Shown: piece after piece, positions 21,481-60,800 of the stretch
Layout of the letters: every line of letters starts with the position of its first letter
How positions within the stretch are numbered: the stretch's first letter is position 1
Origin: Octopus vulgaris
Lineage: Eukaryota
Reading direction: 5' to 3'
DNA length: 64,000 bases
Assembly: GCA_951406725.2 (NCBI GenBank)
Contig: OX597816.1
Location: 8,618,001-8,682,000, forward strand
Translations under genes and position numbers: made by a program
The notes under the pieces: generated by a model
The model's database searches: none
Told to the model about the DNA's origin: nothing
Seen by the model: only the letters and a program-made list of their open reading frames with translations

Positions 21481-23459
21481 ATATGTAAGCCTCGTTTTGG
21501 AAGAGCGGCTTTTTTTAAATGCTGAAATGTCGTTGAAAGAAATAAAACTTTGTGACTGAATTAAGAACTCTGTTTATTTGGAATTAATATGTCTATTTGT
21601 AAATTAAGGACTTTAATTGTTTCTTGTTTTACTTTTACAGTTATGCATATATTAAAATATGTTATTTTGAAATAATAACTCATTATCAGTTGGGGAAAAG
21701 AAAAGAGCACGGATCTTTTCCTTTTGATGAACGGCATTTTCTAGTTAACTAAACAATTTGAAAGGGCACAGATTCGGATGTAGTGAGGGACAAACATTTA
21801 AAATTGTAATTTTACGCTTTATTTGTTTCGGTTATTGGACGGTAGCCATTCTGAGGCACCGCCTTGAAGGGTTTAGGCAAACAAATAAACTCAGTACTGA
21901 TTTTTTTTTTTTTAATCTCTATTACAGTGCTTTTCAAACTTTTTGCTGGAGCGGAACCACAAGGAAACATTCCACTGGCTCGAGGAACCCCTGTGCAATA
22001 ATTTAATAGCCTTATGCACACATATCTGCACAGGAGAATTAAAAATTACTGCCGATTTTAGCAGTTTTGTAACTTCTTGCGGAACCCTGGTTGAAAACCA
22101 CTGCTCTTTATCGGTTTCTTGTCGAATAGCTAAGTTACGGGGACGTAAACAAACATAAACCGGTTCTCAAGCAGTAGAGAACAAATATACATACAACAGA
22201 CTTCCACACGGTTTCTGCCTACCATCTTCACCCATAAGGTACTAGTCTCCTAGGGCGAAAGGAAAAAACGTGCCTTCGGTGCCGCGCTGTGGGACTAAAC
22301 CTGGAACCACGTGATTGCAATAACTGCAAACAAGCACTTTATCAGCGGAGCGCTGTGGTTTAGACAAGATGTTTCGTTTTAGGAGGGGGGAGCGGCTCCT
22401 AATTCATTAGCAGACAACGTAATTTCAAGAGTAAACTTTGGTTACGTAACTATTTGTGTAAATAAGTATTGTAGCTTGGGATCTTTTCTAAAAGATGGAC
22501 AGAATTTTCTACTTAACTAAATAATTTGAAACTTCGTATACTGGTAGAATGTGTCAAGAGAAAACATTAATTTCAATTAGTTTTTTTGAGAAAAATGTAT
22601 TTTGTAACTTTTACGTAGTTTAATTCTTCGAATTTTAACCAATCGTATTCTCTGTTTTAAGCTCAATTCATTCTGCCGTGTTATTCATCCTTATCACTGT
22701 CTTCTGTCTTCAAAGGCTTTTCCCATGTTTATTTCAATATCATCCTTGACTTACGGAACGATTACCTATGTGTGCGTGTGTGTGGACCCGATACCTCAAG
22801 GTATTTTAAGTTTCATTGTTCCAGAATCAACTACAGTTATTTTGAGTTTCATACAGCTGGATTTCGTGGCAATATTTGTACGTAAATACCCTGTAACCTA
22901 GATCTTACCTATACAACCTACCTGTTGAAAACTTCTGCTTAGAATTAAATTAAAAATTATCGAATTAAGCAAATAAAAAAAAAAGAATAACAAAGGGAGA
23001 TAACCCGAACAAGAAGTTGAGAAAGATTAGTCTCCCTTGGAAGAAGTCTTTCAAGTACAAATCAGAAATTGTAGGGCTCAAAGTCGAAAACTGAAATTAT
23101 CCAAGGGATGGGAATTCATTCACCCTAGAGGATCTTAAAAATCTAAAAAAACAAAAGAGTTAAGTCTAGATTAGCTTAATTTGGTTTGGCAGATAGGGAT
23201 GCTCCAAAATTGTCCATTGAACGAATTGCTTGTACTATAATGTGCTTAAATGTATAGTTACAACCATATGCCCACGTCATTACAGGTTTTACATCGGAAC
23301 CACGATTCATTTTAAGCAACGCTAACGTGCACACCTGTTAAGCTGAAAATTTACCTCGTTTTCTACATCCCTCGCAATCCACATACCCTACAATCTGTCC
23401 TGTTCCATAGTTTGCAGCGGAATTCCTCGGACATTCCTCTTTGGAGTGATCGATTTTTT

Positions 23460-24253
23460 TTTTAACAGTTTGAAACTTTGTATACTGGTGTAATTTCTCA
23501 TGCTGAACACGGTTTAATTTCAACATTTTTGACAAAATTTCATATTTTAGAAGTTGTCATATTTGGGTAATTTTAACCAATCAATGACGTGCATTCAGCT
23601 GAAGAAAACTACTGCTGTTTGCAATAGTAATCAAAGAACAACACCTTGCAGGTCATCTCTACTAAATGTCACCACTTGTTTCCTGCCTGTGTTGCATATC
23701 ACACCCTTTGTTTTTTTCCGATCGCCTCTTTGTACATTTGCCTGTTAATTTTGCGATTATTTTCACCTATCTGTTGCATTTTATTTTTGTTTACTGCCTG
23801 TGTTGCATACTGTACGCTTTGTTTGCTTTTCAATCGCCTCTTTGTACATTTGCATTTTCACCACACATAGAAAGAGACAATCATCATCATCATCATCGTT
23901 TAACGTCTGCTTTCCATGCAGAAAAAAAAAGGCCTGTAATATGCAACACAGACAATAAAGAAGAATAAAATAGAACAGAGTTGGTGACATTTAGTAGAGA
24001 CGACTTAGAATTTGTTGTTCTTTGATTACAGTCACAAACAGCAGTGGCTTTCTTCAGCTGAATACATGTTGTTGATTGGTTAAAATAACCCAAATAAGAC
24101 AACTTTAACATGAAATAACTTCTACAATATGAAATTTTGTCACAAATATTGAAAGGAAACCATGTTCAGTGTGAGAAATTAAACCAGTATACAAAGCTTC
24201 AAACTCTTTAGTTAAAAATTCTTTTTAATCTGTGAGCGAAACTGAAGAGATCC
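23460..24253. mobile_element. Fold-back MITE with ~240-bp imperfect inverted arms; the left terminus appears truncated
   Basis: ~23460-23700 mirrored by ~23940-24215 (twin ORFs 23554..23748 + and 23893..24111 -). Confidence 0.7.
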
Positions 24254-24338
24254 TATATTTGTAGTATATTATTTATATGTATATACATATATATATATAT
24301 AGGTAAACATACACATCATATCCATATACAAAGATAAA

Positions 24339-25207
24339 TACGAGGTCTGATCAATAAGTATCCAGACTGTTGCCATGGAAACAAAGCTAAAGCACACAGA
24401 GTGGATCCGCTTGGCAAAGATTGACCTTGCACTCTGTTGTGCATGCGCACACTCAGTTTTAATATTCTAGCTCACTTCTGTTTACAGCAGTGCTTTGAAG
24501 GAAGGTGTGTAGCGTGTGATCGTTGCATTGACCATGACAGAGAAAGTTGTCATGGCGATACATGCTCAGAGGTGTACACAAGGTTGCAGAAAGTATATGA
24601 GCCACACACAAGTGTACGAGTGGTTTGGACATTTCCAAGAAGGCCGAAAAAATGTCAATATTGACGAACATTCTGGGAGACCTGCAACCAGCAGAACTGA
24701 GAAAAACATTGCAGATGTGTGGGCAGTTGTGAAGGGAAATTGTTGAATCACCATCTGTGAGTTATCAGAGGCTGTGCAGATTAGTTACGGTTCAGTTCAG
24801 TCCATTATCAATCAAGATTTAGGTATGAGACATGTGTTTGCCAAGTTTGTGCCAAAACTGCTTTCAGCTGACCAAAAAGACACTCGGGTTTCAGTTGGAT
24901 AAGATCTCGATTGTGTCAAGAATGAGGAAAACTTTTTGAAAACTTTGCGCAGACCTCTGAGCAGATATTGTCAAGCTTTTGTCAAAATTTGATGCAGATT
25001 CTCTGCTCAACTTTCTGTCATGGTCAATTCAATGATCACCTTCCTTCCAAGCACTGCTGTAAACAGCAGAAGTGAACTAGAATGTTAAAAGTTAGTGCAC
25101 ATGCACCAGCAGAGTTGAAGGTCAATGTGTGCCAAGCGGCTTCATTCTGCGTTGCTTTAGCTTCGTTACTACGGCAACAGTCTGAATACTTATTGATCTG
25201 ACCATGA
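24339..25207 (+). mobile_element. Internally deleted mariner element with ~170-bp TIRs
   Basis: 24339-24507 mirrored by 25037-25204; HTH remnants VYEWFGHFQEGR...DEHSGRP...AKFVPKLL. Confidence 0.88.
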
Positions 25208-25915
25208 ATATACACCATGTGTGTATATATCCTATTTATAAATGTTCTAAAATCTTCACAGCCTTGGTTTTTTATCTCATTCTGAAAAAAAAACAATTTT
25301 TATATACACACATGCTGATATATGACCTACGTTGGACCCCTTATTCGCACAATGACCGAACCTGGAGCTTAACTATGGTCTGTCCATAGCCCTTACTCAG
25401 CATTACCTGACACCTTTCGGTCTTACAGATACCAATACCTCTCTCTCTCTCTCTGTATATTACAGTATTGACTTATAAACCTTTAATATATTTGGTTGTA
25501 TATTATGGTTGCAAAACAAAATACTGAGTCCCTACCAGCAGTAACACACACACACACATATATGTAAAGGTGCATGGGTGCCTAGTGGTTAGAGTGTTGT
25601 GCTCACAATCACAAGATCATGGTTTCAGTTCCTAGACCAGGCGGTGTGTTGTGTTCACTTTGTCTCACTCTGCTCTGTGATCACTTCAACACCTGGTGCG
25701 TGGTACACCATGCACCTGTTCAGGCTAAATTGATTTGATGTAGGGAGTGAGCTGATGGACAGCTCATACATTTGACCACAATAAACAAACCCTTTGGTGC
25801 AGGTCATAATAATAATAATAATTGTGTAGTGCTCAGGTGCACTACAACTCATCTGCAGAGTCATTCAGCACACAGCTGAACACTACACTCATACATCATC
25901 TTCAACAGGAAAATC

Positions 25916-25959
<44 letters not shown>

Positions 25960-26556
25960 GATCAAACCACTATTAGGCAAATCAAACAGTGAAAAACATA
26001 AACCAATACATAGAAATAAAAATAATTAATATAATATTCAAAATTTAAATTATTTAAATTATTAATTTATACTCATAAATTTATATATATATTATTTTTA
26101 TTATTATTTTTTATTTATTTTATTTTATTTTATTTTAATTTTTTTTAAAAATATAATTATCAAAAAGTATTAAAAAGTTTAATATAAGATAAAGAGTATA
26201 TATATATGTAAAGCATAATGTTATATGTATGTATATTATTGTAATTATCAGTTTAGTAAATAAATAATTAAGTTAACATTATATAATGTCTAAAAGTTGA
26301 TGAACCACCCATTGATCCCCTCCATTTTCTTATTTGCTTTATAAATTAATAGTAAAATATCTCTTCACATTCACCCATTTAGTACACTCAGTAATGTAAT
26401 TGCAATGCAATAAAAAACACTTGTGTATTAATAACTGGGTATTCTACCAGCAGTATATTGGATAGATATTATCCCTTAGTGGGTTGGATTCACAACCTCT
26501 AACTTTCTTGGAGTTATATATATTTATATATATATATATATATAAATAAATAAATA

Positions 26557-26971: not shown

Positions 26972-26989
26972 ATGTATGTATGTATGTAT

Positions 26990-27291: not shown

Positions 27292-27296
27292 ACATG

Positions 27297-27371
<75 letters not shown>

Positions 27372-29518: not shown

Positions 29519-29574
<56 letters not shown>

Positions 29575-31066: not shown

Positions 31067-31416
31067 TCAAGAAGTTGATCGAGCCTCTTCCACACTAACG
31101 GGGCTCCGAGTCCTACTCGTAGATTGATTGTTAGAGGTTCCGTCTAAAATTGCAGGATGCATTGTAAAATGTCCTGATGAATTTGAAGATGAAGATGCGC
31201 AGAGAGTTTTTACATGGACAGAGTTCATGTTCTCATGGTAAGTCAGCTGGCTGCTGTCCGGACTAGGAGACGTAGAATGCATAAGCAAACTACTACTGTC
31301 TGCTAGAAGGCCTTGTCGTTTGGATTTACTAATCTCCAATAAATGGTCAAAGCACTGAGACTTCCTCTTTAGTAATTCCTTCTTGTGTTCCGCTTCTGCA
31401 ACTCGACGTCGAAGTT
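31067..31416 (-). CDS. GMEB: GMEB-like terminal coding exon (ELRRRVAEAEHKKELLKRKSQCFDHLL...RSTS stop)
   Basis: ctttcttag| acceptor, phase 1, coiled coil followed by a Ser-rich tail, TGA at 31067-31069. The spliced CDS totals 1260 nt (419 aa) including the micro-exon. Confidence 0.88.
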
Positions 31417-33685: not shown

Positions 33686-33808
33686 CTTCCATTTCTTTAT
33701 CAAGTTTATCTTTCTGTCGTTCCATGTCAGTCTTGTGAGCTGCCAACCTGTATTTCAGTTTCGATGTCAAACCCAGTTCACTGACAACTCTAGAAACCTT
33801 CCGCACCT
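33686..33808 (-). CDS. GMEB: GMEB-like exon, coiled-coil region (EVRKVSRVVSELGLTSKLKYRL...KEME)
   Basis: attgcag| and |gtaaag, 123 nt, phase 1 to 1; within ORF 33567..33806; heptad-like composition. Confidence 0.88.
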
Positions 33809-34478: not shown

Positions 34479-35836
34479 GATGGACGAAATACTGTGAAGT
34501 ATTCTGACACAAGGCCAGCAATTTCAGAGAAGTGGAAAGTGGATTACACCGACCCTGGTAGCATTTGAACTCAGAATCTACAAACATGAAATGCAGTTAA
34601 GCATTTTGCCCAGCATACTAACGGTCTTGCAATGATATGGAATGATATTACAATTTTATTATTATTCTTCAAGTCAATTTTCAGTAATAAAACAGACTTG
34701 AAGGTTTTGATACCAGAAAAGAAATTCTTTCTCAATTTGTTTTATGTCTTTTTTTGTCTCTTCTTTTTCCAGGCTTGACATCTTACATTAACTGAGGCAG
34801 TGCTCTGCAACCAGACGGCCTTCCTGTCATCAAGCCTTACCCGGTTTTCAAGTAAGAGTTCTTTTATTTCCCCTCCAAGTCCTACGACTGGCACCCTGCA
34901 GTTGCCAGTGCCACTGGACTGACTCCTGTGCAGGTGGCAAGTAAAGAAACACTGTTTCGACCCTGTGCTTGAGGAAACCTATTGAGTCAAGTACATCAAC
35001 ATCAAAAATCAATGGAAATTGTAGTTGTGATACCAGTGCCGGTGGCATGTAAAAAGCACCATCCGAACGTGGCCAATGCCAGCGCCGCCTTGACTGGCTT
35101 CAGTGCCAGTGGCACGTAAAAAGCACCAACCGACCGTGGCCGTTGCCAGCCTCCTCTGGCCCCTGTGCCGGTGGCACGGAAAAAGCACCCACTGCACTCA
35201 CAGAGTGGTTGGTGTTAGGAAGGGCATCCAGCTGTAGAAACACTGCCAGATCAGACTGGAGCCTGGTGCAGCCTCCTGGCTTCCCAGACACCGGTCAAAC
35301 CATCCAACCCATGCTGGAAAACCGACATTAAATGGTGATGATGATGTCATTGAAAGCATAAAGTGAGCAATGATTTGTTGACAAGGCAACTGACAACAAC
35401 ACCACAGTTTGTAGCTCACGACTTTCAAAAGATATTTTGCATGAATATAAGACAGAATTTGTCAAAGCAGATTTTTCTATTACCAAATGTCCTTTGTGTC
35501 ACCCACACACACCTGTTTCTAAGCAAGACAATATTTTTCCACCGCCAGACATGTTTTCATGGAAGATTGGAAATAAAGGACACTGCTTGTACAACAGTGA
35601 TACTCGTTTACAACTATTGCATTGAAATTACACACTATCACCTTAAAAAGGGAGAGACACACTGAATAATGTAGTCCTAAATACACAATGTTCAATAAAA
35701 GACAGGACAGTCATGGCTGCAATAGGTTAGAGCAGTGTTTCTCAACTGGGGTTCCTCCAGAACCCTAGAGTTCCACAAAAGGTTCCTAGGGGTTCCACTA
35801 GAAAGAAATAAGCCAATGCTAATTTCATGATCATAA

Positions 35837-36529: not shown

Positions 36530-36652
36530 CTTCAAGTGGACATTGGTTTCGAATGAGCTTATATTTTATATTGTCCAAGGTGTTCTTAAATTCCCGAAAT
36601 ATTTCATCAGCAAGTCCGAGCTCAATGATTCCTTTCCAAAATAGCTGACTTT
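36530..36652 (-). CDS. GMEB: GMEB-like exon (ESQLFWKGIIELGLADEIFREF...CPLE)
   Basis: FWKGIIELGL parallels GMEB FWKGIADVGL. tcttgtag| and |gtaagt, 123 nt, phase 1 to 1. Confidence 0.92.
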
Positions 36653-39700: not shown

Positions 39701-39838
39701 TATTTCATGAAACGAAGAACAGTTGTTAGTTGATGAAGTACAATGGCTATGTGGTTAAGCTACTAGAGCGATGATCACAGTCGTGAGCTCAAATCTTACC
39801 AGAGCCACCGGGCTGTGCTCCAACATAAGCCATCTCAC

Positions 39839-39871
39839 CAGTAGAACTAGCATGAGGAAATGTCTGTAAAA
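39839..39871 (-). CDS. GMEB: GMEB-like putative 33-nt micro-exon (VLQTFPHASST)
   Basis: Strong pyrimidine tract tttctttctttttgcag| and g|gtgaga; symmetric phase 1 to 1 with an open frame; no homology support. Confidence 0.55.
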
Positions 39872-41175
39872 CTGCAAAAAGAAAGAAACAAAACCAAAAA
39901 AGACTCATTTTGACTTATTAAAACAAAAAGAGTTTTTGAGAAAAGCACAGCACTGAAGTATAGAATATTTAATTTGGCACTTGACATGAAATGTCAAGTG
40001 TCCGCAACTGAAGTGTTCAAAATACATTCCACAGTAAACCTTTTTCAAAAGGATAAACCAAACAAACTGAGGAACCAAATATCTTCCTTTAAATGTTGTA
40101 TTCAAGAAACAACGCAAGGCCCTGAAGATTGAGGCTTCAAGGGGCTGCAAAGAATTTTTAGAAATTGCTTTAATTACTGTTGGGCACCTTGGGCAAGTGT
40201 CTTCTACTATAACCCAGGGTTGACAAAAATGCCTTGTGAGTGGATTTGATAGGCAGACACAGAAAGAAGCATTTCACCCAGGGTGCTCACGTTTCTGCCA
40301 GCTTGCTGCCTTAAAAGATAAAAGATATTATCACAAGAATGGTTTCCTGCTGGGGTTTATTATTTTCTTACAATCTTTCCAAAAGTGAATTGTTTTCGCC
40401 TTCTGTTGAAAGGCTGTCCTAATTGTCAAATGCTTGAAGCATTTTTTAACTGTATGTTTGTTGATTTTTGACAACAGTGATTCAATTTTTTGATCCATGG
40501 GATTTCTTCTCCTTCACTTTGAATGCGTGCCACTTGATAGATGGGTCTTCTCCCTGACTGTTCATTGAATTAACAGCCAATTAGTGTTGGAGGCACAAAA
40601 CAGCACTCAGTACACCAGTACACACTGTAAAGTGGTTGGCATTAGGAAGGGCATTTGGCCAAAGAAGCTTTGCCAAAGTTGTAATTGAAGGGCAATGCAG
40701 CCCTGTGGCTTGCCAAATCCTGTTGAACCAACCACACACACAATGTACTTGTCCAACGTACTTGTCCAACGTACCAACCGATCGGACATTGTACCTTTGA
40801 CCTTTAGATTGTCAAAGCAAATGATTAAATCCAATGAGACCGAAAATAAATAAACTACTGACCCATTCTGTGCCTACCTAACAAAGGGACATACCTAAAC
40901 ATACACACTGGCTTACAAAGTTCTACATACATTCTGAACAGTAAACGTAACCCCGATATTTAATCAATAAAAAATTCCCCAAAACACCTCTCCATAACAA
41001 TCCACTCTAAGACCCAATTACCAACCCACTCTCACACACAAGTAATACTTTAGCCCAACAGAGATTATATAATGCCAAGATTAACTTCAATGCATCACAG
41101 TACAACAATGGCTTGACTGACTAAAACTTTGAAGTCACTGTCCACAATATTCATGTTTAAGTATATATGTAAGTA

Positions 41176-43027: not shown

Positions 43028-43033
43028 CATCAG

Positions 43034-43066
<33 letters not shown>

Positions 43067-43446
43067 CTTCTTCAGTGTTTTCAGCTGTCACAGCTCTATG
43101 CAGAACCTGTACACTTGGTTTGACATCGGGGTCATCTTGGTTTTGCGATTGATTATGCAGAACCAGTACACTTGGTTTCACATCAGGGTCATCTTGATTT
43201 TGCGATTGATTAACATACGTATACTGACTTCCTACTGCTTCAGCAATTTTGCCAGAAGTCTGTTCAGAAACATAGAGATAATTGTTTTCTTTAATGCTAA
43301 TCCCAGTCCCTGCCAGCAGAGTTGAGATTGGGGCCAAAGTGCCATCATCAAATACCATTGTCTTCAATGGTACTCGCGGTACACAGCGACCTGTACACAT
43401 CTCTTGGTGATTAGTAAAATCCAACTGTCCTGATTCAATGTACTTC
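43028..43446 (-). CDS. GMEB: GMEB-like exon 2 (KYIESGQLDFTNHQEMCTGRC..., 19-aa tandem repeat, poly-Q)
   Basis: SGQLDF.NHQEMCTGRC parallels the GMEB post-SAND zinc-binding segment SGQIDFYQHDKVCSNTC. cccttcag| and |gtatgt, 419 nt, phase 2 to 1. Confidence 0.9.
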
Positions 43447-43571: not shown

Positions 43572-43793
43572 GGTACTACTAGTGAACAGTGGTCCTGGTG
43601 CGTGCACATGCGCATCCGTGCAGGCTAGTCGTAAGTAGTCGATCCTACAACGACTTTTTAACCCTAACCTTAGTTTGTTAATAAAAATAATTTATTTGCT
43701 TAGTTTAAAAAATTATTTAGGATCGACTACTTACTACTAGCTACTGCGGATGCGCGTGTGTGCGCACCGGGACCACTGTTCGGTAATAGTACC
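43572..43793. mobile_element. 222-bp MITE with long TIRs and a 9-bp TSD (Merlin- or MULE-type)
   Basis: GGTACTA...TAGTACC termini, ~75-bp imperfect TIRs, TSD cagaatttg at 43563-43571 and 43794-43802. Confidence 0.85.
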
Positions 43794-44359
43794 CAGAATT
43801 TGTTGAGGCAGATTTTTTACAGCTTAATGCTTTTCCTACAAACACCACATGATGTCAAGACTAGGATACACACACACACATAAACACAATATAATAATGT
43901 GTAAGATGCTGAGCACTCCACAGACACAGGTACCTATTTCTTTACTACCCACAAGGGGCTAAACACGGGCTCTCTGTGTTTAGCCCCTTGTGGGTAGTAA
44001 AGAAATAGGTACCTGTGTCTGTGGAGTGCTCAGCATCTTACACATTATTATATTGTGTGTATGTATTTGTGTGTGTATCCTAGTCTTGACATCATGTGGT
44101 GTTTGTAGGAAAAGCATTAAGCTGTAAAAAATCTGCCTCAACAAATTCTGGGTACTATTACCGAACAGTGGTCCCGGTGCGCACACACGCGCATCCGCAG
44201 TAGCTAGTAGTAAGTAGTCGATCCTAAATAATTTTTTAAACTAAGCAAATAAATTATTTTTATTAACAAACTAAGGTTAGGGTTAAAAAGTCGTTGTAGG
44301 ATCGACTTCTTACGACTAACCTGCACGGATGCGCATGTGCACGCACCAGAACCACTGTT
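43585..44359. repeat. Near-perfect ~775-bp palindrome (fold-back duplication) in a GMEB-like intron
   Basis: Arms 43585-43966 and 43976-44359 are reverse complements with few mismatches, around a 9-nt spacer gggctctct. Confidence 0.95.
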
Positions 44360-45375: not shown

Positions 45376-45587
45376 CTGAGTTGGATGCCATTCATTCGAA
45401 CAGCATTCTTCCAGTCTTTAAGCTTTTCTTTCTCGCCCATGACAGAAAACAGTTTCGGAGAGATAAAACGGCCTTCAAACTCAATACATTCTCGGTGAAT
45501 GCCAGGACAAATAAATTTCTCCATATGTAGTTTACCAACCAAATTTCCACAGGTGACTGTTATCACCCCTGCACTATCTTCAGTCAT
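45376..45587 (-). CDS. GMEB: GMEB-like (glucocorticoid modulatory element-binding protein family) transcription factor, SAND-domain exon
   Basis: VTCG...KFICPGI...FISPK.F...KLKDWKNAVRMNGIQLR is a SAND domain with the KDWK motif. cttacag|ATG and ag|gtattt, 212 nt. Confidence 0.93.
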
Positions 45588-47124: not shown

Positions 47125-47642
47125 TCCCTAGTGCGAACAATTCTCCTTTACGGCAGCGAGTCATGGCCGATGAGGGTGGAAGATATTAAGCGACTAGAAT
47201 CCTTCGATCACCTCTGTCTACGCCACATCTTTCATGTCCGATGGCATCACTTTGTCTCCAACAATTCGGTGCGACACCAGTGCAGAATCACCTCCCTCCG
47301 ACAAGTCATTCTAACGAGACATTGGCTGCGTCATGCCTGTCGTCGTCAACCAGGAGAATTCATCTACGAAGCAATTGCCCTAGCTCCCCTTCAGGGTTGG
47401 CGAAAGTGATGTAGTGGACAATGAAAAACCTGGCTGATGACAGTCAAGGCTGATCTGGAACCCAACCTAGACACCATATCTACGGCGTTCACCGCTGGAA
47501 TAAGGAGTGGTTGGAGATCACGCGGTCGTTAGCCTCAAATCACCAGGTCTGGTCAGCGTTTGTGAGAGATGCAGCATTGAGGATGAATGAAGCCAGCTCA
47601 ACCCACCCCGGGTGAATGCTGTCTCAAGACAAGAAAAGACAA
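47125..47642 (+). mobile_element. RTE LINE 3' fragment of a second family; mirrored at ~63580-64000
   Basis: VRTILLYGSESW...LESFDHLCLRHI...WLRHACRR (ORF 47110..47409) with a caaga-repeat tail. Confidence 0.8.
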
Positions 47643-48225
47643 TGATGATGATGGCTTAACTGTCTTCATAGAGGTTATCCTAAGACATTAGTCCATGCTC
47701 TAAATGAAGACAATTTATCCATTTACGCATTTAATCAGCAATCTTGTTTCTAAGACAATACTGAGGTATTTAACCCTTGAGTTACCACATTTCTGTTGAA
47801 ATACATTATTTCACTTTACACATTAATTTTTTTTAAATAACGAAGAATTTAATGAATTAACTTTGTCATTTTTAAGTTGATGTTTCCAACATAATTTAAC
47901 AAGAAATTTTGATGGAAAGTTTTAAGATGATTTTAAAATGGGAAGTCTGTACCATAAAGCCAGGGGCAATGTCGGATGGTTTGGTATCAAAAGTGTTTAA
48001 ATAGAAACCTAATTACATGAGATTTCAATTGGTCAACACCAACATAATATATATAAACCAATACATAAATTTACAGGTTTTTCACTAAATACTTTGAAAA
48101 TCTTGATTATATTGAACATTTATAGGAATACATAGACAGGCTACTTGTTAAAATGCAGTTAAAGAAAGTGTGAAGCAAGAACCGTGCTGGACTACATGGC
48201 AATACAGGAATTACCATAATTGATG

Positions 48226-49565
48226 TCAACAAGAGTCACGGCCCTGACGGCATACACCCACGGGTTATCAAAGCGTTGGCTCCGGTCATCTGCGAGCCCT
48301 TAACATGACTATTCAATATGTCATTGGCGACGGGTGTTATACCTGCAGACTGGAGAACAGCGATAATCTGCCCAATTTTCAAGAAAGGGAGCCGCGAAGA
48401 CCCGCTTAACTACCGACCGGTTTCCTTACATCAATAATCAGCAAGATGTTCGAAACCATCCTTAAGAAAAGTATGATGCTCCACCTCCTAAACACAGCCT
48501 CGATCACTGATTCCCAACACGGCTTCGTGCCGAAGAGATCATGCTTGACCAACTTACTAGTAATGGAAGAATTGGTGACGCGCATCCTCGATGATAGTAA
48601 TGCTGTTGACATCGTTTTATTGGACTTTGCCAAAGCTTTTGACTCGGTAAACCACCGCCTACTACTTGTCAAGCTTCAAGCATATAGTTTCCATCCGGAT
48701 ATTGTACGATGGGTTGGTGCCTTCCTCTCAGATCGCTCCTTCCAAGTTCAAGTTAATGGTTCGCGGTCCGACGTCTCCAGTGCAAGCAGTGGCGTGCCTC
48801 AAGGTTCAGTGCTTGGGCCCTTGTTGTTCTTAGTCTTCATAAATGACTTGCCCGACGACCTCACGCAACACACCCTTCTATTTGCCGACGATATCAAACT
48901 GGTCGCTCCTCGCGGTAGTATAGAGGATCTTCGTCGATGCCTCCACCAAATTTGGAAGTGGTCTAACGATTGGGACCTGTGTCTGAATGTGTCAAAGTGC
49001 TGTCATCTGCCTGTCGGCTCTACTCCTGCAACTCAACTTGATTTCGAGCCGGGTCGTCTGCTGCTGGAGAGGACCGATCAGGTAAAGGACCTGGGTATCT
49101 TGGTGGATTCCTCCTTTTCGTCTTCGGCCCAGTGCGTCCATGCTGCCAACAAAGCGCGCGGAATTCTGTTTTTGATTCGACGGTCATTCGGAATGCTCAC
49201 AGCAGCCATATTCCTGCCACTCTATGTCACGCTGGTGAGACCCATATTGGAGTATGGGATTCAAGCCTCTTCTCCTTATCTCCTCAAAGACATACAGCAC
49301 CTCGAAAGAGTCCAGAGGCTGGCTACCCGCATGATTCATGGTCTCAAAAATTTGTCCTATGAAGAAAGGCTGAGGACGCTCGACCTTTATTCTCTTGAAA
49401 AACGCCGCCGCCGTGGTGATCTCATTCTCGCCCACAACATCATAAGCGGGAAGTGTAACCTCTCGAAAGAGCTGTTCTTCACTCCTGCTCCGGAGCGTCG
49501 GCTGCGGGGTCATTCCGAAAAGCTCTACCTGCGACGATTTCATCTCAATCGAAGGAGAGGAGCTT
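48226..49565 (+). mobile_element. CR1-type LINE ORF2 (reverse transcriptase) fragment, truncated at both ends
   Basis: KSHGPDGIHP, NYRPVSL, QHGF, DFAKAFD, GVPQGSVLGP and FADD motifs; ORF 48446..49582. Ends at RRGA with no 3' UTR and is absent from the right arm. Confidence 0.93.
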
Positions 49566-52004
49566 TATTATTATTATTATGACGATGAGAGCAATGCATG
49601 CCATCAAAGTGATGGTGGGGTACAAATATACGAAGCCCTATATACTATCTGATAAGGATACACCAGGCACATACATAAAAACCATGTGACATGGTGACCT
49701 CATATCAAGATGAACAGCACATGACCTCACAGGTGGAACCCAGTTATAATTTTCTTCAGGTCGAGTTCATCCTGCTTAAAACATCCCTGAATAAGGGTTA
49801 AGGACGATGGGTGAATCACTTCTCAACACATGGTTATGATGCTCCCCCACTATTTCTGCTTGTGATAAGAGATGCACATAGCATCAGCCATTAGGTGACA
49901 TGCACAACTGGTTACAGTTAAGCAGCTGACAAGCAAATCTGTGGTATTGAGCAGAATATTTGCTGTAGCCCATCTTTTACATCAAGATAAAACATGTACA
50001 TGTTAACACTTCCAATCAATTATGATCAGAAGCCATGAGAACCACAGCCTGGTACTGCATCAGAGCATTCATTATTATTATTAATTGGCAAACTAGCAAA
50101 GAAATCTTTAGCATGTCAGGCAAATCGCTTAGTGGCATTTCTTTTGGCTCTTTCCCTGGTTCTTAGTTCAAATACTACCAAGGCTGGCTTTTTGCAGTCA
50201 CCCTTCTAGGGTTTCATAAGATAAATATCTTTTCTAATCTAGGCAGAAGGACTGAAATTTTTGGAGAGGGGGCCAGTCGTTTAGATCGACTCCAGTGCGC
50301 AACTGGTACTTATCGACCCCAAAAGGATACAAGGCAAAGTCGACCACGGCGGAATTTGAACTCAGAACATAAAAGACAGACGAAATACTGCTAAGCATTT
50401 CGCCTTTCATAAAATAAATTCCACCAAAGCACTGATATCAACATATTACCGTATTTTAACGTGTATAAGGAACCTATTTTTGTCAAAACTTAGGTTTAAA
50501 AAATATGGGAGTTTCTTACACATGGATAGTATTATAATCTTTTTTTTTTCCCAAATTTTAAGAACCCCAAAATTAGGGGGTTCCCTATACACGTTAAAAT
50601 ACGGTCTTTTGTTGCCAGTTGAAATCATTATCACTTTTATAATTTTCTTTTTTTTGTTTTTATGACCGGGTCAAAAGCTTTAGTTTGACCCTTACGGTTA
50701 CTCTCCGGTAGTTTATTCTGCTTTTGTCTCAAATTTGTTTTTTCCCTACTTTCTGGGTCAATAAAATAAAGTGCTATAAACAACTGCTACCTTTCCTGCA
50801 AAAGAAAAAAAAAAAGAAAAAAATTCTGGCCTTCTGCCTGTGCTAGAAATAACAACTGTTATTTCTCATTCCTCGGTGAGGAAGCAGACAGGAAGAAAAC
50901 ACAACTCTAGGCAGAAGAAGAGTTGTCTAAATTCCATGATAGGTGTGAAGGTAACAAGTGCTTGCTTGCACATTTATTGTTGTTGTTGTTGTTCCACAAC
51001 TCTGCCTTTCGTCCTTTCCGGGACGATAAAATGAAATAGCAGTCAAGTCCCGGGGTCGGTGTAACCAGCTGTCCCCATCTGTCCCCTTTTCTGGAAATTG
51101 TTGGATTTGTGCCAAGATCAGAACGAATTATTATTGTTGTTATAAAAATATATTTAGACAAAAGTTTTAAGAGCCAAATATAACCAAATTCTCTAAATGT
51201 GTTTAGTAAAGAAAGATCACGTTCGCAAAGCACAGGTCGATGACATACGGGTGCGTTCGGGGTCACTACCTGCTACAAAAGAGTAGCTAAATCTCCCTCA
51301 AACGAAACACTTACGTATTTTATTGTGAACTATTCAAGTATTTGTGTGGACTATACGAGTATAATTGCTGTCTTTACTTGACTTATTGCGGTTCTTTTGC
51401 TCCTACCATCACCTTTCATCCTTTTCCGACAAGTTGTGTTCTAAAGCCCCGGGGGGTGGGGAAAATGCTGAGCGATATTTGTTGCAGTTCTTTACGTTCC
51501 CAGATCAAATCCCAGACTAACGTTTTGTCTTCCATGGGTCGATTAAATAAGTAACAGTCAAGTCCTGGGATCGATCTAATCCACGAACCACCTCCCCATA
51601 AAATTTCAGGCCTTGTCTATTCGTAGAAAGAATTATTGTTATTATTATTATTATTACTAAGGTGGCGAACCTGCAGAATCCGTTTAGAGCCTCGCAGTGT
51701 TACCTCCGGGTCTTTACGTTCCCAGTTCGAACTCCACCGACGTCGACATCAACCCCCCCCCCCAGCATCCCTGAAAACTGAGGCCCTTGTCCCTAAATCG
51801 GAAATTATAATTATTATTTGATATGCGACGACGAGAAGGTCATGGATGGAGACTTTTCGATTAAAGGCATGCTGTATCAATAAGAACATAAAGGAAAATA
51901 ATACAAACAATAAATAATAATAATAATAATAGTAATTGCATGTGTGTGTGTGTGTGTGTGTTGTATGAAGAACAAAGAAAGAAAAAACTTGGTTTTATAC
52001 CCAC

Positions 52005-52939
52005 CTTTGATTAAAAGTATGACAGGTAGAAACCAGGTGAGCAGCAGGGACGGAGATTAGTGAGGATTCGTGGGGAAGACGGAAATAACGGATGAAACCA
52101 AATAGGGTGGTAACATATAATATAGAGAGGAAGAAGGAATATATATATGTGGGTACATCATTGATTCTATTGTCTTGCCTCCATAACTTCAATAACAACA
52201 CTGACCAAGAGAGAGAGAGGAATGCTGCAATGACCATATATATATATAGATATAGATATATGTATATATAAATGTGCCCACCCACACAGAGGAGAGGGGA
52301 AACTATTATCGTACAACAGTTGGGAGAGAGAGGAAAAGTTACGTTGTCATGAAAGAACTTAGCAAAGTTCGATCGATCGATTTTGCGGGAATTTAAGCGA
52401 TTATATCATATATTTATTACTTTGTTAAGTGGTGTAGGTATATTTTGTGTGTGATTATAAAATAATGTCGTGAAATTCTAAGAGATTTGAGGGAGAATGG
52501 TGTCTTTTTTTTGTTTGTTTGTGGAGTTTTTGTTGTTAGTTTTTTTTCTTTAAGGTCGACGTTTTTGGAAGAAATCGGGAGAAAAGAAAATATGGCGAGA
52601 AAAAAAAGGGAAAGAGTGTTCTAAAGGAGAGGAAAAGTTGGATGAAAGCATGGTAAGAATTGTGGTTTGCGCCTGAAGACGGTAACGTGCCCCATTTTAA
52701 CGTCGAGAAACAAATATGGACGTTGCTTTGAACGGAAACGGACACTGACGTCATTGACGTTTCCCTTACGTCACGACTCGGTGTGACACGTGAGCGTTGC
52801 GTTCCGCCAACCCCGTCGCGAGTTCGTCGCCGCCTTCGCCGTCATCGTCGTCGTTTTAACGAAGTCGTTGGGTGACGTTGGTTTTGAAAAGGAAGAGGAA
52901 AAGTAAGAGGAGAGAACAACAGAGAATGGTTGACCTCCT
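52005..52939 (-). promoter_or_regulatory. Putative GMEB-like promoter and 5' UTR exon (CpG-rich; CRE, E-box and ACGT cluster)
   Basis: CpG-dense block 52680-52880 with TGACGTCA (52746-52753), TTACGTCA (52766-52773) and CACGTG (52787-52792). Candidate donor aag|gtgggt at 52004, ~6.4 kb upstream of the SAND exon. Confidence 0.55.
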
Positions 52940-53384
52940 ACCACACGGCTATGTCATGTGCTTGCTAGACTAGCCTCGTTCTGGAAACTGTATTGAACTC
53001 TTTCGAAAAGTTGAGGTTTTGAAGGAATATTGATTGATTTGCGGCGAGTTTGATAAAAGATAATAAAAATAAAGTTATCGTCGAAAGAAGTAAACATCCC
53101 ACACGCAATTCTGATTTACAACGGAATCCATTTCATTTTTAGTCGAATAAATGAATCTCAGTAATTATTTTTTTAAAAGCCTAATATTTATTCTAGCGGA
53201 CTCTTGCGAACCTCTAAGTTACGGGGATGTAAAAAAAACCAACACCGGTTGTAGAGCGGTGGGAGACAGGCAGACACAAAGACATGCACGCACACACACG
53301 CACGCAAAACATATAATCGTCCTTTCTACGACAGGCACAAGGCCTGAAGTTTTTTGGGGGTGGGGAAGAGGCGAGTCGATTACA

Positions 53385-53899
53385 TGGACCCAACTGGTAC
53401 TTAATTTATCGATCCCGAAAGGATGAAAGGGGAAGTCGACCTCGGCGAAATTTGAACCCAGAACGTAGCAACGGGCGAAATACCTATTTCTTTGCTACCC
53501 ACAAGGGGCTAAACACAGAGGAGACAAACAAGGACAGATAGGCGGATTAAGTCGATTACATCGACCCCAGTGCGTAACTGGTACTTAATTTATCGACCCC
53601 GAAAGGATGAAAGGCAAAGTCGACCTCGGCGGAATTTGAACTCACAACGTAACGCAGACGAAATACCTATTTCTTTATTACCCACAAGGGGCTAAACACA
53701 GAGGCAACAAACAAGGACAGACATAGGTATTAAGTCGATTACATCGACCCCAGTTCGTAACTGGTACTTAATTTATCGACCCCCGAAAGGATGAAAGGCA
53801 AAGTCGACCTCGGCGGAATTTGAACTCACAACGTAACGCAGACGAAATACCGCTAAGCATTTCGCCCGGCGTGCTAACGTTTCTGCCAGCTCGCCGCCT
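53385..53899 (-). mobile_element. SINE (family B) tandem array, about 3 units
   Basis: Repeated gtcgacctcggcggaatttgaactc...gaaatacc units with a ~183-bp period. Confidence 0.88.
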
Positions 53900-55785
53900 C
53901 AACAAACATGTAAGATATACACAGCGGACTTCTTTCACTTTCCATTTATCAACTCCACTCACAAGGCTTTAGTCGGCTCGAGGCTATAGTAAAAAACACT
54001 TGCTCGTCGTCGGGAAGTAGGTTTCTTACTACACAATTTATTATTGTTATTTATCTTTTTTGAAAACTCGCTGATGTTTACATATTTCAGTGAAAGATGC
54101 ACAAATGGCATAGTAAGTTAGGGTGTTGTAATCACAATCGTCAAATCGTGGATTCGGTTCCCGGACCGGGCAGCGCGTTGTGTCCTTGAGCAAAACAGTT
54201 CATAGCATGTCAGGCTGCAGGTGAGAGCGCGGTAGAATCGTTGGCGTGTCGGCAGATATGCTTTATGAGATATCGTCCAGCTGCCTACATTCTGGGTTCT
54301 AATCCCACCTGACTGGAGAAGGAAACAGGAAACTGTTCCAGTATTAGTCCCAAATCTAGTCATGGAAGTAATCTACTTGACGGTGGAAGTGGGGTAAGGG
54401 CCCTCTCAGGTCATATAGAGAGTGCTGGAGAAAGTTTACATGCACAGGACTTACCAAGGGCAGACAACCGCTCGACTCTTATATTTTACATTTATTTAAA
54501 TTATTTCATTTCGAAGTGTAAGCGTCTAGTTGAACAAGAATCTTCTGATATGGCTCAGGCCAACCAAAACTTTGTGAATGGGTGGGGTTGATGGAAACTG
54601 AAAGAAGCCCTTTGTATGAACATAAACCTGAAAAAAGAAATAAGTACTGAGATTAATTAAATCGACTAAACCCTTTAAGGCAGTGCTCTATCATGGCCAC
54701 ATGTCAATGACTGAAACAAGTAAAAAGATAGCCTCTTCTGGGCGCAATCGGTCCAATGTAGACACCTATACTTTGGCTTCTAGGAGAACCGGGTATGTCA
54801 GGTGATGCGCTGGCAGAGGGAATGGAAAGTAAGTGGGTTCTATGAATAAATGTGTGTTCTTTTATCTTATACTTGTTCACTCATTAGGCTACGGTCATGC
54901 AGTGGGACTGAACTCGGAACCATGTGTTTCAAATATGAGATAGAAGCAGCGCTAGTGTAATAACATTATCAACCACATATACTTAACGTATATATCGGTT
55001 GTTTGCGATTTGACATGGTGGAGAAGACTCTCTCAAAGTGCCGGGTGTTAAAACACCTGAACGTTATGGACAGGCAAGATAAATCCCCTCTAATACCATC
55101 CAGGAGTGATGGACATTGATCCTTCGCCATTTTCGTGGCTTATCAACATCACGTAACCGAACAGGATCTGAGATGGATCATTTCATCAGTTCACGTGCAA
55201 ACTGTGTGGATGTGCCCGGACAATGCATACGAAAAAATAAATTCAGATATGAATTTATTGCATTAACGCTGCTTCCATTTCCTATCAGTAAAGGCAGATA
55301 AAGTAGGCTGAATGTATATTTACATGGAATATTAAATACAGAGTACGGAATGAAGTAAACGGAAGAAGTTATGTAATCGTTTTGTCTCGACAGCTGTTTC
55401 AGGTGCACCACGGCTTATGCCGTAGACACATTCTTATGTAACAAAGGTGCATGATGTCTTAGGGGTGTGTAATAACATAGGTCCGAATTAATTTATTAAG
55501 CAGATCACCTTCATTGGAAGGAAGATTCCAAGGTCGTATTTTCATAAGTAAAGGTTTATAGAAAACACAATAGAGGTACTAAGGAAAATGTTCGAGGGAG
55601 GATAAGAAACGGTTAACGAGGTGGGGAGATTAAAGAGGAATTAGCAGAATGAAACTCAGAGAGAGGAGGGATAAAGACTATTGTGCTCGCCTTAGAGTTG
55701 TTAGGTAGTTTGTTAAACAATACAGAAAAAAGGAGAGGCAACAGTAGCAAACGTCATTAAGGAGAAAGCAGGTTATAAAGGAAGA

Positions 55786-56823
55786 AAGACGGCGAACTGG
55801 CAGAAACGTTAGCACGCCGGGCGAAATGCTTAGCAACATTTCGACTGCCGCTACGTTCTGAGTTCAAATTCCGCCGAGGTCGACTTTGCCTTTCATCCTT
55901 TCGGGGTCGATTAAATAAGTACCAGTTAGTAAAGGGACAAGCTAGTTTGTACAGTAAAAATTATGACGATTTCATGTAGTTGGAGAAAGTTTCGTAGCAT
56001 TTGTGATAACATTCAATGGGGTTGATATAATCGACTTAATCCATTTGTCTGTCCTTGTTTGTCCCCTCTGTATTAAGCCCCTTGTGGGTAGTAAAGAAAT
56101 AGGTATTTCATCTGCCTTTACGTTCTGAGTTCAAATTCCGCCAAAGTCGACTTTGCTTTTCATCCTTTCGGGGTCGATTAAATAAGTACCAGTTACGCAC
56201 TGGGGTCGATATAATCGACTTAATCCATTTGTCTGTCCTTGGTTGTCCCCTCTGTATTTAGCCCCTTGTGGGTAATAAAGAAATAGGTATTTCATCTGCC
56301 TTTACGTTGTGAGTTCAAATTCCGCCGAGGTCGACTTTGCTTTTCATCCTTTCAGGGTCGATTAAATAAGTACCAGTTACGCACTAGGGTCGATGTAATC
56401 TACTTAATCCATTTGTCTGTCCTTGGTTGTCCCCTCTGTATTTAGCCCCTTGTGGGTAGTAAAGAAATAGGTATTTCATCTGCCTTTACGTTCTGAGTTC
56501 AAATTCCGCCGAGGTCGACTTTGCTTTTCATCCTTTCAGGGTCGATTAAATAAGTACCAGTTACGCACTAGGGTCGATGTAATCGACTTAATCCATTTGT
56601 CTGTCCTTGGTTGTCCCCTCTGTATTTAGCCCCTTGTGGGTAGTAAAGAAATAGGTATTTCATCTGCCTTTACGTTCTGAGTTCAAATTCCGCCGAGGTC
56701 GACTTTGCTTTTCATCCTTTCAGGGTCGATTAAATAAGTACCAGTTACGCACTGGGATCGATGCAATCGACTTAATCCGTTTGTCCCGTCTGTGTTTAGC
56801 CCCTTGTGGGTAGTAAAAGAAAT
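55786..56823 (+). mobile_element. Head-to-tail SINE (family B) concatemer with a 184-bp period
   Basis: Units restart at 56102, 56286, 56470 and 56654; one 16-bp TSD aggttataaaggaaga at 55770-55785 and 56824-56839. Confidence 0.92.
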
Positions 56824-57102
56824 AGGTTATAAAGGAAGATAGATAAAAGTAAATAAAGCCGCGGGTGAAGGAGGCGCGTCGGTAAGAGAGAAGGTGAGTG
56901 TTAGAGAATTACGATTAGTAAAGGTGGAAGCTAGTTTGTGCAGTAAAAATTGTGACGATTTCATGGAGTTGGAGAAAGTTTTGTAGCATTTGTGATAACA
57001 TTCAAAAATTATGTCAGAGAATCGATTTAGCTTCGAAGTCTTGTTGTGGCGAAATATAGTGAGCGGCACGTGGCAACATACTGGACAAACGCACCAATCT
57101 GC

Positions 57103-57888
57103 TGTCCGAGGAATTCCGCTGCCAACTATGGAACAGGACAGATTATAGAGTATGTCCTTATAGGGTATGTGGATTGCGAGGAATGTAGAAAACGAGGTAA
57201 ATTTTCAGATTAACAGGTGTGCACGTTAGCGTTGCTTAAAATGAATCGTGGTTCCGATGTAAAACCTGTAATGACGTGGGCATATGGTTGTAACTATACA
57301 TTTAAGCACATTATAGTACAAGCAATTCGTTCAATGGACACTTTTGGAGCATCCCTATCTGCCGAACCAAATTTAAGCTAATCTAGACTTAACTCTTGTT
57401 TTTTTAGATTTTTAAGCTCCTTTAGAGTGAATGAATTCCCATCCCTTGGATAATTTCAGTTTTTGACTTTGAGCCCTACAATTTCTGATTTGTACTTAAA
57501 AAAAAAAAAGACTTCTTCCAGGGGAGACTAATCTTTATAAACTACTTGTCTGGGTTATCTCCCCTGGTTATTCTTTTTTTGATTTTTTAAATTCAATACC
57601 TATTTCTTTACTATCCACAAGGGGCTAAAGACAGAGAGGACAAACAAACGGATTAAGTCGATTATATCGACCTCAGTGCATAACTGGTACTTAATTTATC
57701 GACCCCGAAAGGATGAAAGGCAAAGTCGACCTTGGCGGAATTTGAACTCAGAACGTAACGGCAGACGAAATACCGCTGAGCATTTCGCCCGGCGTGCTAA
57801 CGTTTCTGCCAGCTCGCAATACCCTTTAATTACATTCTAAGCAGAAGTTTTCAACAGGTAGTTTGTATAGGTGAGATCTAGGTACAGG
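57103..57888 (-). repeat. Inverted copy of 22890-23433 (with a SINE inserted at 57601-57816), fused to the right arm
   Basis: tgtccgaggaattccgct...gatctaggtacagg is the reverse complement of cctgtaacctagatc...agcggaattcctcggaca. The SINE is flanked by TSD caatacc. Confidence 0.93.
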
Positions 57889-60800
57889 AGGTCAACCATT
57901 CTCTGTTGTTCTCTCCTCTTACTTTTCCTCTTCCTTTTCAAAACCAACGTCACCCAACGACTTCGTTAAAACGACGACGATGACGGCGAAGGCGGCGACG
58001 AACTCGCGACGGGGTTGGCGGAACGCAACGCTCACGTGTCACACCGAGTCGTGACGTAAGGGAAACGTCAATGACGTCAGTGTCCGTTTCCGTTCAAAGC
58101 AACGTCCATATTTGTTTCTCGACGTTAAAATGGGGCACGTTACCGTCTTCAGGCGCAAACCACAATTCTTACCATGCTTTCATCAAACTTTTCCTATCCT
58201 TTAAAACACTCTTTCCCTTTTTTTTTTTTTCTCGCCATATTTTCTTTTCTCCCGATTTCTTTCAAAAACGTCGACCTTAAAGAAAAAAAATTAACAACAA
58301 AACCTCCACAAACAAACAAAAAAAGACACCATTCTCCCTCAAATCTCTTAGAATTTCACGACATTATTTTATAATCACACACAAAATATACCTACACCAC
58401 TTAACAAAGTAATAAATATATGATATAATCGCTTAAATTTCCGCAAAATCGATCGATCGAACTTTGCTAAGTTCTTTCATGACAACGTGACTTTTCCTCT
58501 CTCCCAACTGTTGTACGATAATAGTTTCCCCTCTCCTCTGTGTGGGTGGGCACATTTATATATACATATATCTATATCTATATATATATATGGTCATTGC
58601 AGCATTCTCTCTCTCTGGTCAGTGTTGTTATTGAAGTTATGGAGGCAAGACAATAGAATCAATGATGTACCCACATATATATATTCCTTCTTCCTCTCTA
58701 TATTATATGTTACCACCCTATTTGGTTTCATCCGTTATTTCCGTCTTCCCCACGAATCCTCACTAATCTCCGTCCCTGCTGCTCACCTGGTTTCTACCTG
58801 TCATACTTTTAATCAAAGGTGGGTATAAAACCAAGTTTTTTCTTTCTTTGTTCTTCATATAACACACACACACACACACACACATGCAATTACTATTATT
58901 ATTATTATTATTATTATTTATTGTTTGTATTATTTTCCGTTATGTTCTTCTTATTGATACAGCATGCCTTTAATCGAAAAGTCTCTCCATCCATGACCTT
59001 CTCGTCGTTGCATATCAAATAATAATTTCCGATTTAGGGACAAGGGCCTCAGTTTTCAGGGATGCTGGGGGAGAGGGATTGATGTCGACGTCGGTGGAGT
59101 TTGAACTGGGAACGTAAAGACCCGGAGGTAACACTGCAAAGATCTAAACGGATTCTGCAGGTTCGCCACCTTCATAATAATAATAATAATAACAATAATT
59201 ATTTCTACGAATAGACAAGGCCTGACATTTTATGGGGAGGTGGTTAGTGGATTAGATCGATCCCAGTACTTGACTTACTTATTTAATCGACCCATGAAAG
59301 ACAAAAGTCAAGTCTGGGATTTGATCTGAGAACCTAAAGAACTGCAACAAATATCGCTCAGCATTTTCCCCCACCCCCGGGGCTTTAGAACACAACTCGT
59401 CGGAAAAGGATGAAAGGTGATGGTAGGAGCAAAAGAACCGCAATAAGTCAAGTAAAGACAGCAATTATACTCGTATAGTCCACCAAAATACTTGTATAGT
59501 TCACAATAAAATATGTTATTCGGTGTCCTACGGTAAGAGTTTCGTTTGAGGGAGATTTAGCTACTCTTTTGTAGCAGGTAAGTCACCCCGAACGCATCCG
59601 TATGTCATCGACCTGTGCTTTGCGAACGTGATCTTTCTTTACTAAACACATTTAGAGAATTTGGTTATATTTGGCTCTTAAAACTTTTGTCTAGATATAT
59701 TTTTATAACAACAATAATAATTCGTTCTGATCTTGGCACAAATCCAACAATTTCCAGAAAAGGGGACAGATGGTTACACCGACCCCGGGACTTGACTGCT
59801 ATTTCATTTTATCGTCCCGGAAAGGACGAAAGACAGAGTTGTGCAACAACAACAACAACAACAATAAATGTGCAAGCAAGCACTTGTTACCTTCACACCT
59901 ATCATGGAATTTAGACAACTCTTCTTCTGCCTAGAGTTGTGTTTTCTTCCTGTCTGCTTCCTCACCTAGAAATGAGAAATAACAGTTGTTATTTCTAACA
60001 CAGGCAGAAGGCCAGAATTTTTTTCTTTTTTTTTTCTTTTGCAGGAAAGGTAGCAGTTGTTTATAGCACTTTATTTTATTGACCCAGAAAGTAGGGAAAA
60101 AACAAATTTGAGACATGGGCTGGATTTGAACATAAAAAAGCAGAATAAACTACCGGAGAGTAACCGTAAGGGTCAAACTAAAGCGTTTTTAGCCCGTTAT
60201 AAAAAGAAAATTATAAAAGTGATAATGATTTCAACTGGCAACAAAAGACCGTATTTTTTAAACCTAAGTTTTGACAAAAATAGGTTCCTTATACACGTTA
60301 AAATACGGTAATATGTTGATATCAGTGCTTTGCTGGAATTTATTTTATGAAAGGCGAAATGCTTAGCAGTATTTCGTCTGTCTTTTATGTTCTGAGTTCA
60401 AATTCCGCCGTGGTCGACTTTGCCTTGTATCCTTTTGGGGTCGATAAGTACCAGTTGCGCACTGGAGTCGATCTAAACGACTGGCCCCCTCTCCAAAAAT
60501 TTCAGTCCTTCTGCCTAGATTAGAAAAGATATTTATCTTATGAAACCCTAGAAGGGTGACTGCAAAAAGCCTGCCTTGGTAGTATTTGAACTAAGAACCA
60601 GGGAAAGAGCCAAAAGAAATGCCACTAAGCGATTTGTCTGACATGCTAAAGATTTTTTTGCTAGTTTGCCAATTAATAATAATACTGTATGCCCTGGTGC
60701 AGTACCAGGCTGTGGTTCTCATGGCTTCTGATCATAATTGATTGGAAGTGTTAACATGTACATGTTTTATCTTGATGTAAAAGATGGGCTACAGCAAATA

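Follow-up and report, generated by a model that had tools for sequence, protein, structure and literature searches.

A head-to-head, inverted and rotated duplication of a whole GMEB gene in Octopus vulgaris that probably arose by duplication-inversion-duplication

A whole gene of the GMEB type is present twice at one locus of Octopus vulgaris, as an inverted and rotated duplication whose copies lie head to head and are both intact. The stretch of DNA under study, here called the window, comprises 64,000 nucleotides of contig OX597816.1 (assembly GCA_951406725.2, positions 8,618,001 to 8,682,000; G000:C3:8618001-8682000), and the 150 kb beyond and 50 kb before it were also analysed; positions marked as extended continue the numbering of the window on either side. 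A sequence-only reading of this DNA had presented a circular DNA intermediate as the expected cause of the rotated order. Comparison of the possible single-copy ancestors leads us to a different account, in which the locus probably originated by duplication-inversion-duplication (dupINVdup) with two new joins and without a circle.

Results

The order at the locus is X-A-B-Y-a-b-Z, in which a and b denote inverted copies of A and B. Segment A (22890-23433, plus strand, 544 bp), the last ~230 bp of which are the front of a decayed retroelement reading frame cut at 23433, is followed by a 7-nt insert and by segment B (23441-52939, minus strand, 29,499 bp), which carries GMEB copy 1 and a CpG-rich promoter region near 52640-52939. 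The single-copy segment Y (52940-57102, 4,163 bp) separates B from segment a (57103-57888, minus strand), and segment b, with GMEB copy 2 on the plus strand, begins at 57886 and runs to the end of the window at 64000. A and B are duplicated, Y is not, and each duplicate pair is inverted, as in dupINVdup; at the same time the order changes from A-B in one copy to B-A in the other, as with a circular intermediate. Sequence 22890-23433 is found again inverted at 57888-57103, where it is split by a 228-bp repeat of the short interspersed element (SINE) type (57598-57825), and 47233-52939 corresponds inversely to 64000-57886. On the minus strand, 57900-57870 fuses the stretch up to 52939 with that from 22890 onward, the two overlapping in CCT, exactly as had been reported; one nucleotide is deleted two bases inside the A part. 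The permuted and inverted arrangement of copies ~4 kb apart, with homology ending at 23433/57103, is likewise present in the sequence. Beyond the window the inverted copy continues through every coding exon (extended 65647-81758) to extended 89170 (G000:C3:8707170). This is the equivalent of 23441, 7 nt off 23433, and agrees with the earlier prediction that the copy would run through all GMEB exons to the equivalent of 23434. Across the whole unit the copies differ by 714 substitutions in 23,997 aligned bases (3.0%). A genome search with segment A returned two places, both at this locus (2 of 2 candidates), a count that is a lower bound since the search passes over very common words; the possibility that 22890-23433 is a dispersed high-copy repeat, raised in the sequence-only reading as a ground for refutation, was rejected on this result.

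Three of the six joins can be dated by repeats, one as new and two as ancestral. The decayed retroelement frame runs unbroken across 57103 (56941-57351, minus strand) and ends in copy 1 at 23433. All 11 fetched non-self loci of its family align in frame across the equivalent of 57103 (150 of 1196 candidates from the genome search were scored). Pfam gave the frame no name (best E 0.04); from its motifs we take it to be Penelope-like with a GIY-YIG domain. Likewise, a high-copy palindromic repeat spans the far end of copy 2 as a complete element (extended 89154-89351), the equivalent position is crossed in 10 of 10 fetched loci (8 distinct places), and only a stump of 16-17 bp is left of it in copy 1 (23441-23457). 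Since both repeats are unbroken across 57103 and the far end of copy 2, the joins Y|a and b|Z are ancestral, and since both are cut in copy 1 at 23433/23441, the join A|B is new. The earlier proposal that 23433 is the novel junction is therefore borne out. One detail differs: the truncated element by which this join is dated is the neighbouring palindromic repeat and not the element at 23453-24219. A local direct repeat of the retroelement remnant (55911-56016 and 56901-57005) flanks a 184-bp tandem array within Y.

The new join A|B interrupts the two repeats without long homology, as would the join of the donor ends of a circle, and contains a 7-nt insert, TTCCTCT (23434-23440). The insert repeats the TTCCTC found 11 nt upstream and looks templated; a 7-mer recurs within the preceding 30 nt at 2.9% of sampled places. 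The join a|b (57886-57888, minus strand) passes through the 3 bp CCT, so that both a microhomology and a short insert, the hallmarks of dupINVdup joins, occur here; three or more shared bases were found in 6.0% of 200,000 random joins. CCT is also present at X|A (22890-22892) and at B|Y (52937-52939).

Between X and Z, segments A, B and Y can be arranged as single copies in 48 ways, all of which were enumerated. The order X-A-rc(Y)-b-Z, where rc stands for the reverse complement, is the sole one that yields the present layout at the cost of two new joins, A|B and a|b, without losing an adjacency. Each of the two circle-type ancestors requires three new joins and the loss of one adjacency. When the repeat-dated joins are held fixed, two of the 48 ancestors are left, X-A-rc(Y)-b-Z and X-Y-a-b-Z. 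The sequence-only reading had compared just two ancestors, with one or the other copy as donor and three joins each; the third was overlooked, and with it the circle loses its place as the expected cause. That the proximal copy is the derived one holds as far as its join at 23433 is new, but under the two-join ancestor neither copy is simply derived from the other.

Contigs from other runs and organisms, judged by a bridging rule of 31 letters, contain several of these joins. Position 22889 is bridged in runs X2, X7 and X8 and position 57103 in X5, X7 and X8. One contig of X2, on 23404-23470, spans the 23433/23441 join without a difference, its left overlap of 30 letters being one letter under the rule. 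Short contigs in X5 and X8 match the a|b join (57886-57888), and in both runs the promoter contig has about double depth and branches exactly at 52939. The duplication must therefore predate the split of their organisms (B and D) from that of the window. The A|B join was recovered in one of four runs and an a|b contig in two of four; because X2, labelled with the same organism as the window, yielded no a|b contig, missing contigs were not counted as evidence. Run X7 bridges X|A and passes from A into Y, with neither new join. A 1026-bp contig of X8 (depth 6.57) lies on 22786-23433, and a contig of equal length and depth lies on 57587-56779. We infer that the two placements are one record reading X-A-rc(Y), which fits the two-join ancestor or its isomer. 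The start of Y gave 4/368 in X5 against 47/1766 in four other listed contigs of Y and a (Poisson p 0.033), and 4/368 against 39/1585 in X8 (p 0.053, among the contigs listed and not independent of X5), which hints weakly that conservation at the beginning of Y is near that of the promoter and above that of neutral DNA.

A third copy of the locus is present on another contig (C6:42572341-42593713), where the reversed equivalent of extended 60816-81085 is followed by that of window 9388-12845, again in rotated order. Substitutions amount to 5.3-5.5% in the GMEB part and to 4.6% in the 9388-12845 part, which points to one older event. This copy ends in coding exon 4 and has no promoter. One of its ends adjoins the remnant of an IS1595/ISXO2-type transposase (PF12762), presumably of the type called Merlin, and the other a matching inverted-repeat element. 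In the window, 20221-20483 is a remnant of the same inverted-repeat transposon end. In the reconstructed donor about 18 kb separate the outer ends of the C6 copy, so that the strict signature of a circle is absent; a circle with later loss or a separate templated copying can account for it. A database protein model (P0022) fuses the C6 copy to a C2H2 zinc-finger array, and two truncated proteins named after O. sinensis (P0007 and P0008) look like the same third copy.

A cDNA-like insert lies inside another element on a further contig (G000:C9:103542870-103543205). It consists of three exon-like pieces joined at splice-site boundaries. One is 34773-34851, an intronic stretch in each of the three copies that is antisense to GMEB; the next is 21307-21484, and the third comprises the initial 70 bp of coding exon 1 of GMEB. 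In the window, 21307-21484 (plus strand) is an exon-like stretch with AG before and GT after it, and in the C9 fragment it is the piece joined to coding exon 1. The order of 34773-34851 and 21307-21484 is impossible by splicing from the present layout. Farther upstream, extended -35164 to -34691 (plus strand) contains an acidic exon-like frame of 158 aa, which may resemble a HECT ligase of the HACE1 kind.

A protein search with the first coding exon found 15 proteins among 22 candidates, the best being GMEB-like proteins of Octopus species. Both copies can be spliced by GT-AG rules into full frames, identical to two database proteins, P0017 with 408 aa and P0002 with 390 aa, and the SAND domain of both was recognized by PF01342 with 83 bits against a cut-off of 22. 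The assignment to GMEB rests on this domain (residues 6-79, with the KDWK motif), on the precomputed match to PF25892 and on the names of identical or near-identical database proteins. The vertebrate proteins GMEB1 and GMEB2 bind DNA sequence-specifically and dimerise. What sets the octopus apart is the occurrence of two intact recent paralogs next to a truncated third copy. In copy 1 (minus strand) coding exon 1, with the start of the SAND domain, lies at 45376-45587, exon 2, with a 57-bp internal tandem duplication, at 43028-43446, exon 3 at 36530-36652, exon 4 at 33686-33808, and the last coding exon with the stop codon at 31067-31416. A tblastn search with P0005 placed an alternative exon of longer database isoforms at 39801-39872 on the same strand.

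The two proteins differ at 21 residues. The proportions of nonsynonymous (pN) and synonymous (pS) differences are 2.4% and 9.8%, respectively (dN/dS 0.23, Fisher p 3e-6), which, as judged from substitution patterns, indicates that both copies are kept under purifying selection. Divergence between the copies rises to 7-8% in coding exons 3 and 4, against 3% overall, and this rise is not due to CpG transitions. Together these exons hold nine of the 21 residue changes; compared with P0003, those in exon 3 occurred mostly in copy 1 and those in exon 4 mostly in copy 2. The kilobase on the promoter side (52277-52939) differs by just 0.9% (8/933) against 3.0% overall, by constraint or conversion. 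No RNA data set was listed as containing 52300-58400. With the C6 copy as outgroup the two copies show no asymmetry in rate (185 versus 192 derived changes at 12,306 sites), and the idea of telling donor from derivative in this way was dropped. Copy 1 alone contains a 777-bp fold-back (43585-44359, a 97% palindrome) and a 480-bp inversion (40267-40745); comparison of copy 1 with copy 2 and C6 shows the inversion to be derived. Each copy has a private insertion of the long interspersed element (LINE) type, at 48226-49563 in copy 1 and at 61609-63237 in copy 2; the first contains a 390-aa frame whose motifs we take to be reverse-transcriptase-like.

Both paralog types occur on one contig among the proteins named after O. 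sinensis, and a protein search found one GMEB gene each in O. bimaculoides and Argonauta. The copy-1-type proteins with the O. sinensis name (P0004 and P0005) have an exon 2 identical to that of the copy-2 type (P0018 and P0019), either by gene conversion or by collapse in the assembly. A reciprocal crossover between the copies, also considered for these proteins, was dropped when P0007 and P0008 turned out to be the third copy.

Discussion

The most probable origin of the locus, in our judgement, is a duplication-inversion-duplication starting from X-A-rc(Y)-b-Z, with two new joins and no circle. In this event the new strand would have left the end of A (23433) during replication or repair, added seven templated bases and primed again on the complementary strand, within the palindromic repeat at the gene unit's far end. 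Synthesis would then have run in reverse through B, Y and A and switched back to the forward strand at the edge of the promoter, by way of the 3-bp CCT with which A starts and B ends. Paired chromatids with staggered double-strand breaks may have led to the same product by another route. The isomers X-A-rc(Y)-b-a-b-Z and X-A-B-A-rc(Y)-b-Z would pass into the present layout by recombination between inverted copies and are counted here as the same explanation; a literature search found no paper joining paired duplications with recombination. The repair pathway is our inference, as is the status of three joins, of which we take 22889 and 52939 to be ancestral and 57886 to be new. The CCT at 22890-22892 would thus mark the ancestral donor site and that at 52937-52939 the ancestral neighbour of the promoter. 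Position 57886, formerly taken for the point at which a circle was opened, would be a template-switch join; template switching had been named as an alternative to the circle, and it is compatible with the path favoured here. A single microhomology, present in two donors and one product, explains why CCT stands at all three joins. Moreover, dupINVdup makes the close (4,163 bp) and inverted spacing of the copies obligatory, while for a circle it is incidental. Copy 1 is predicted to have kept the ancestral upstream DNA of the promoter and copy 2 to have gained new upstream DNA. CpG counts (9 per 200 bp at the start of Y, 3 at the start of A, background mean 4.2) lean mildly towards the dupINVdup origin.

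Several points weigh against this origin. None of the joins 22889, 52939 and 57886 is spanned by a repeat or a second copy, and none is therefore dated directly. Nothing spanning X|A, B|Y or a|b was found in DNA searches with 22300-22889, 52940-53220, 22786-23000 and 52860-53130, in a protein search with 22969-23091 or with a profile of the retroelement family. Among the runs examined no outgroup DNA from before the duplication was seen. Of the 18 informative sites in the X8 contig, 12 agree with copy 2 (p 0.24 when tested against equal numbers), and, as the organism of X8 is already duplicated, X-A-rc(Y) may have arisen there by a later flip or through fusion of the A copies by the assembler. 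The 29.5-kb arm is far longer than the breakpoint duplications of Drosophila (up to about 1.9 kb; PMC1885836, which like the other published cases is drawn on here in part), and its length speaks against the version with single-strand breaks. Finally, an older copy in rotated order from the same locus exists on C6; dupINVdup cannot produce it, and this raises the prior for circles at this locus.

The strongest competitor, which we nevertheless regard as unlikely, takes copy 2 as the donor. The DNA from 57103 to the far end would have been excised or copied as a ~30-kb circle closed at 23433/23441, opened at the promoter-side CCT and inserted in inverted orientation 4.2 kb away between X and Y, so that the CCT at 22890-22892 would be a new insertion join. 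The order flip is as defined for circular intermediates in the portion of PMC7450558 considered, the circle would have closed at a join that is new and contains a short insert, copy 2 has the two ends of copy 1 side by side (57886-57888, an undated join), the direction is consistent with both repeat-dated joins, and the C6 copy on another contig is also rotated. On the other hand, this path costs three new joins instead of two and, unlike the two-join route, loses an adjacency. It also requires flush integration with CCT retained on both sides, and the circle must have landed no more than 4.2 kb from its donor although the genome measures 2.8 Gb. No X|Y join occurs among the matches listed (four runs, 22786-23470), which argues only weakly since all of the organisms may carry the duplication. 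The distant location that would make a circle the most parsimonious explanation is not given here: the copies are 4,163 bp apart and inverted, and a two-join route exists. In the part of PMC7450558 drawn on, the order flip is called most parsimonious for non-tandem copies, and the closest pair in its Table 1 is 0.09 Mb apart.

A broader version, that the GMEB locus shed germline DNA circles twice, an older one that went to C6 next to Merlin-type transposon ends and a younger one of 30 kb that closed at 23433, was opened at the edge of the promoter and was reinserted 4 kb away, appears quite unlikely to us. If true, it would constitute serial circle-mediated gene duplication in a mollusc with joins known at base level, and would have left a functional head-to-head paralog pair with diverging coiled-coil exons.

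Very unlikely in our opinion is a tandem duplication of a and b, followed by an inversion from X|Y to the a|b of the second copy via inverted CCT and by a recombinational flip of the 29-kb B copies. Worked out by hand, this route yields the same six joins by steps each of which is a common event. It had been objected that a tandem duplication needs two further inversions. This is true, yet the second may be ordinary recombination between the 29-kb inverted copies, and in that case no coincidence is called for. Exchange between the copies seems to occur, as P0004 and P0005 combine exons 1 and 3-5 of copy 1 with an exon 2 of the copy-2 type, although gene conversion or assembly collapse could also explain the shared exon. 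The route demands three events and three new joins, and none of its intermediates was seen.

Two further explanations are almost certainly wrong. With copy 1 (22890-52939) as donor of a circle closed at CCT and copy 2 as the insert, the CCT join would resemble a circle-closing microhomology, but 57103 and the far end of copy 2 would have to be new, and it is there that the repeats are unbroken, while they are cut in copy 1. An artefact of assembly or a haplotype join, which had been named as a possible refutation, finds some room in the shallowness of the raw reads of X22 and X23 (about 3 in 100 of each run), too few to span the joins, but is contradicted by the 3.0% divergence, by private LINE insertions in each copy, by joins and branch points that recur in contigs of other runs and organisms, and by the presence of both paralog types on one contig among the O. 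sinensis-named proteins.

Inversion with paired duplications is reportedly known from human genomes, the source cited for it being Brand et al. in 2015. Our preferred dupINVdup origin shares with the human cases, as far as described in the parts of PMC5338099 and PMC6286558 drawn on, the duplicated segments around a single-copy middle and the two new joins; in the case of PMC6286558 the path runs forward, takes up an insert, jumps to the far end in reverse and turns forward again, with microhomology of at least 3 bp. The octopus case differs in being old and apparently fixed (3% divergence), in its very unequal arms (0.54 and 29.5 kb), in a long arm that holds a whole gene with its promoter, and in a middle whose ancestral orientation is putative. 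Drosophila inversions, in the portion of PMC1885836 considered, likewise have inverted duplicates of single-copy DNA at both ends, new joins without a common repeat and a staggered-break model, but their duplicates measure 46 bp to about 1.9 kb, whereas the octopus arm of 29.5 kb is seven times as long as the inverted middle.

For cattle KIT, duplication through a circular DNA intermediate is said to have taken place. Human cSDPs and the vasa gene of tilapia (PMC7450558 and PMC3245284, in the sections consulted) resemble the octopus locus in the A-B versus B-A order, the size near 30 kb, short inserts and microhomology at the joins, and the copying of a whole gene with its introns. Their copies, however, lie at least 0.09 Mb apart or on other chromosomes, the tilapia vasa copy having moved to a distant site (PMC3245284), and for several an empty acceptor site is seen in an outgroup, while the octopus copies are inverted and 4.2 kb apart. 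Adjacent and inverted copies are the only geometry in which two joins suffice.

A literature search, with subscription papers and supplements outside its scope, found no paper combining GMEB and octopus and, among the matches listed, nothing on this point in work on extrachromosomal circular DNA of octopus. At this cephalopod locus a complex local rearrangement has doubled an entire transcription-factor gene, and the event is resolved to the base, old and apparently fixed. It also calls for caution: where copies are adjacent and inverted, the A-B/B-A order follows equally from a two-join inversion, which shows that rotated order alone does not prove a circular intermediate.

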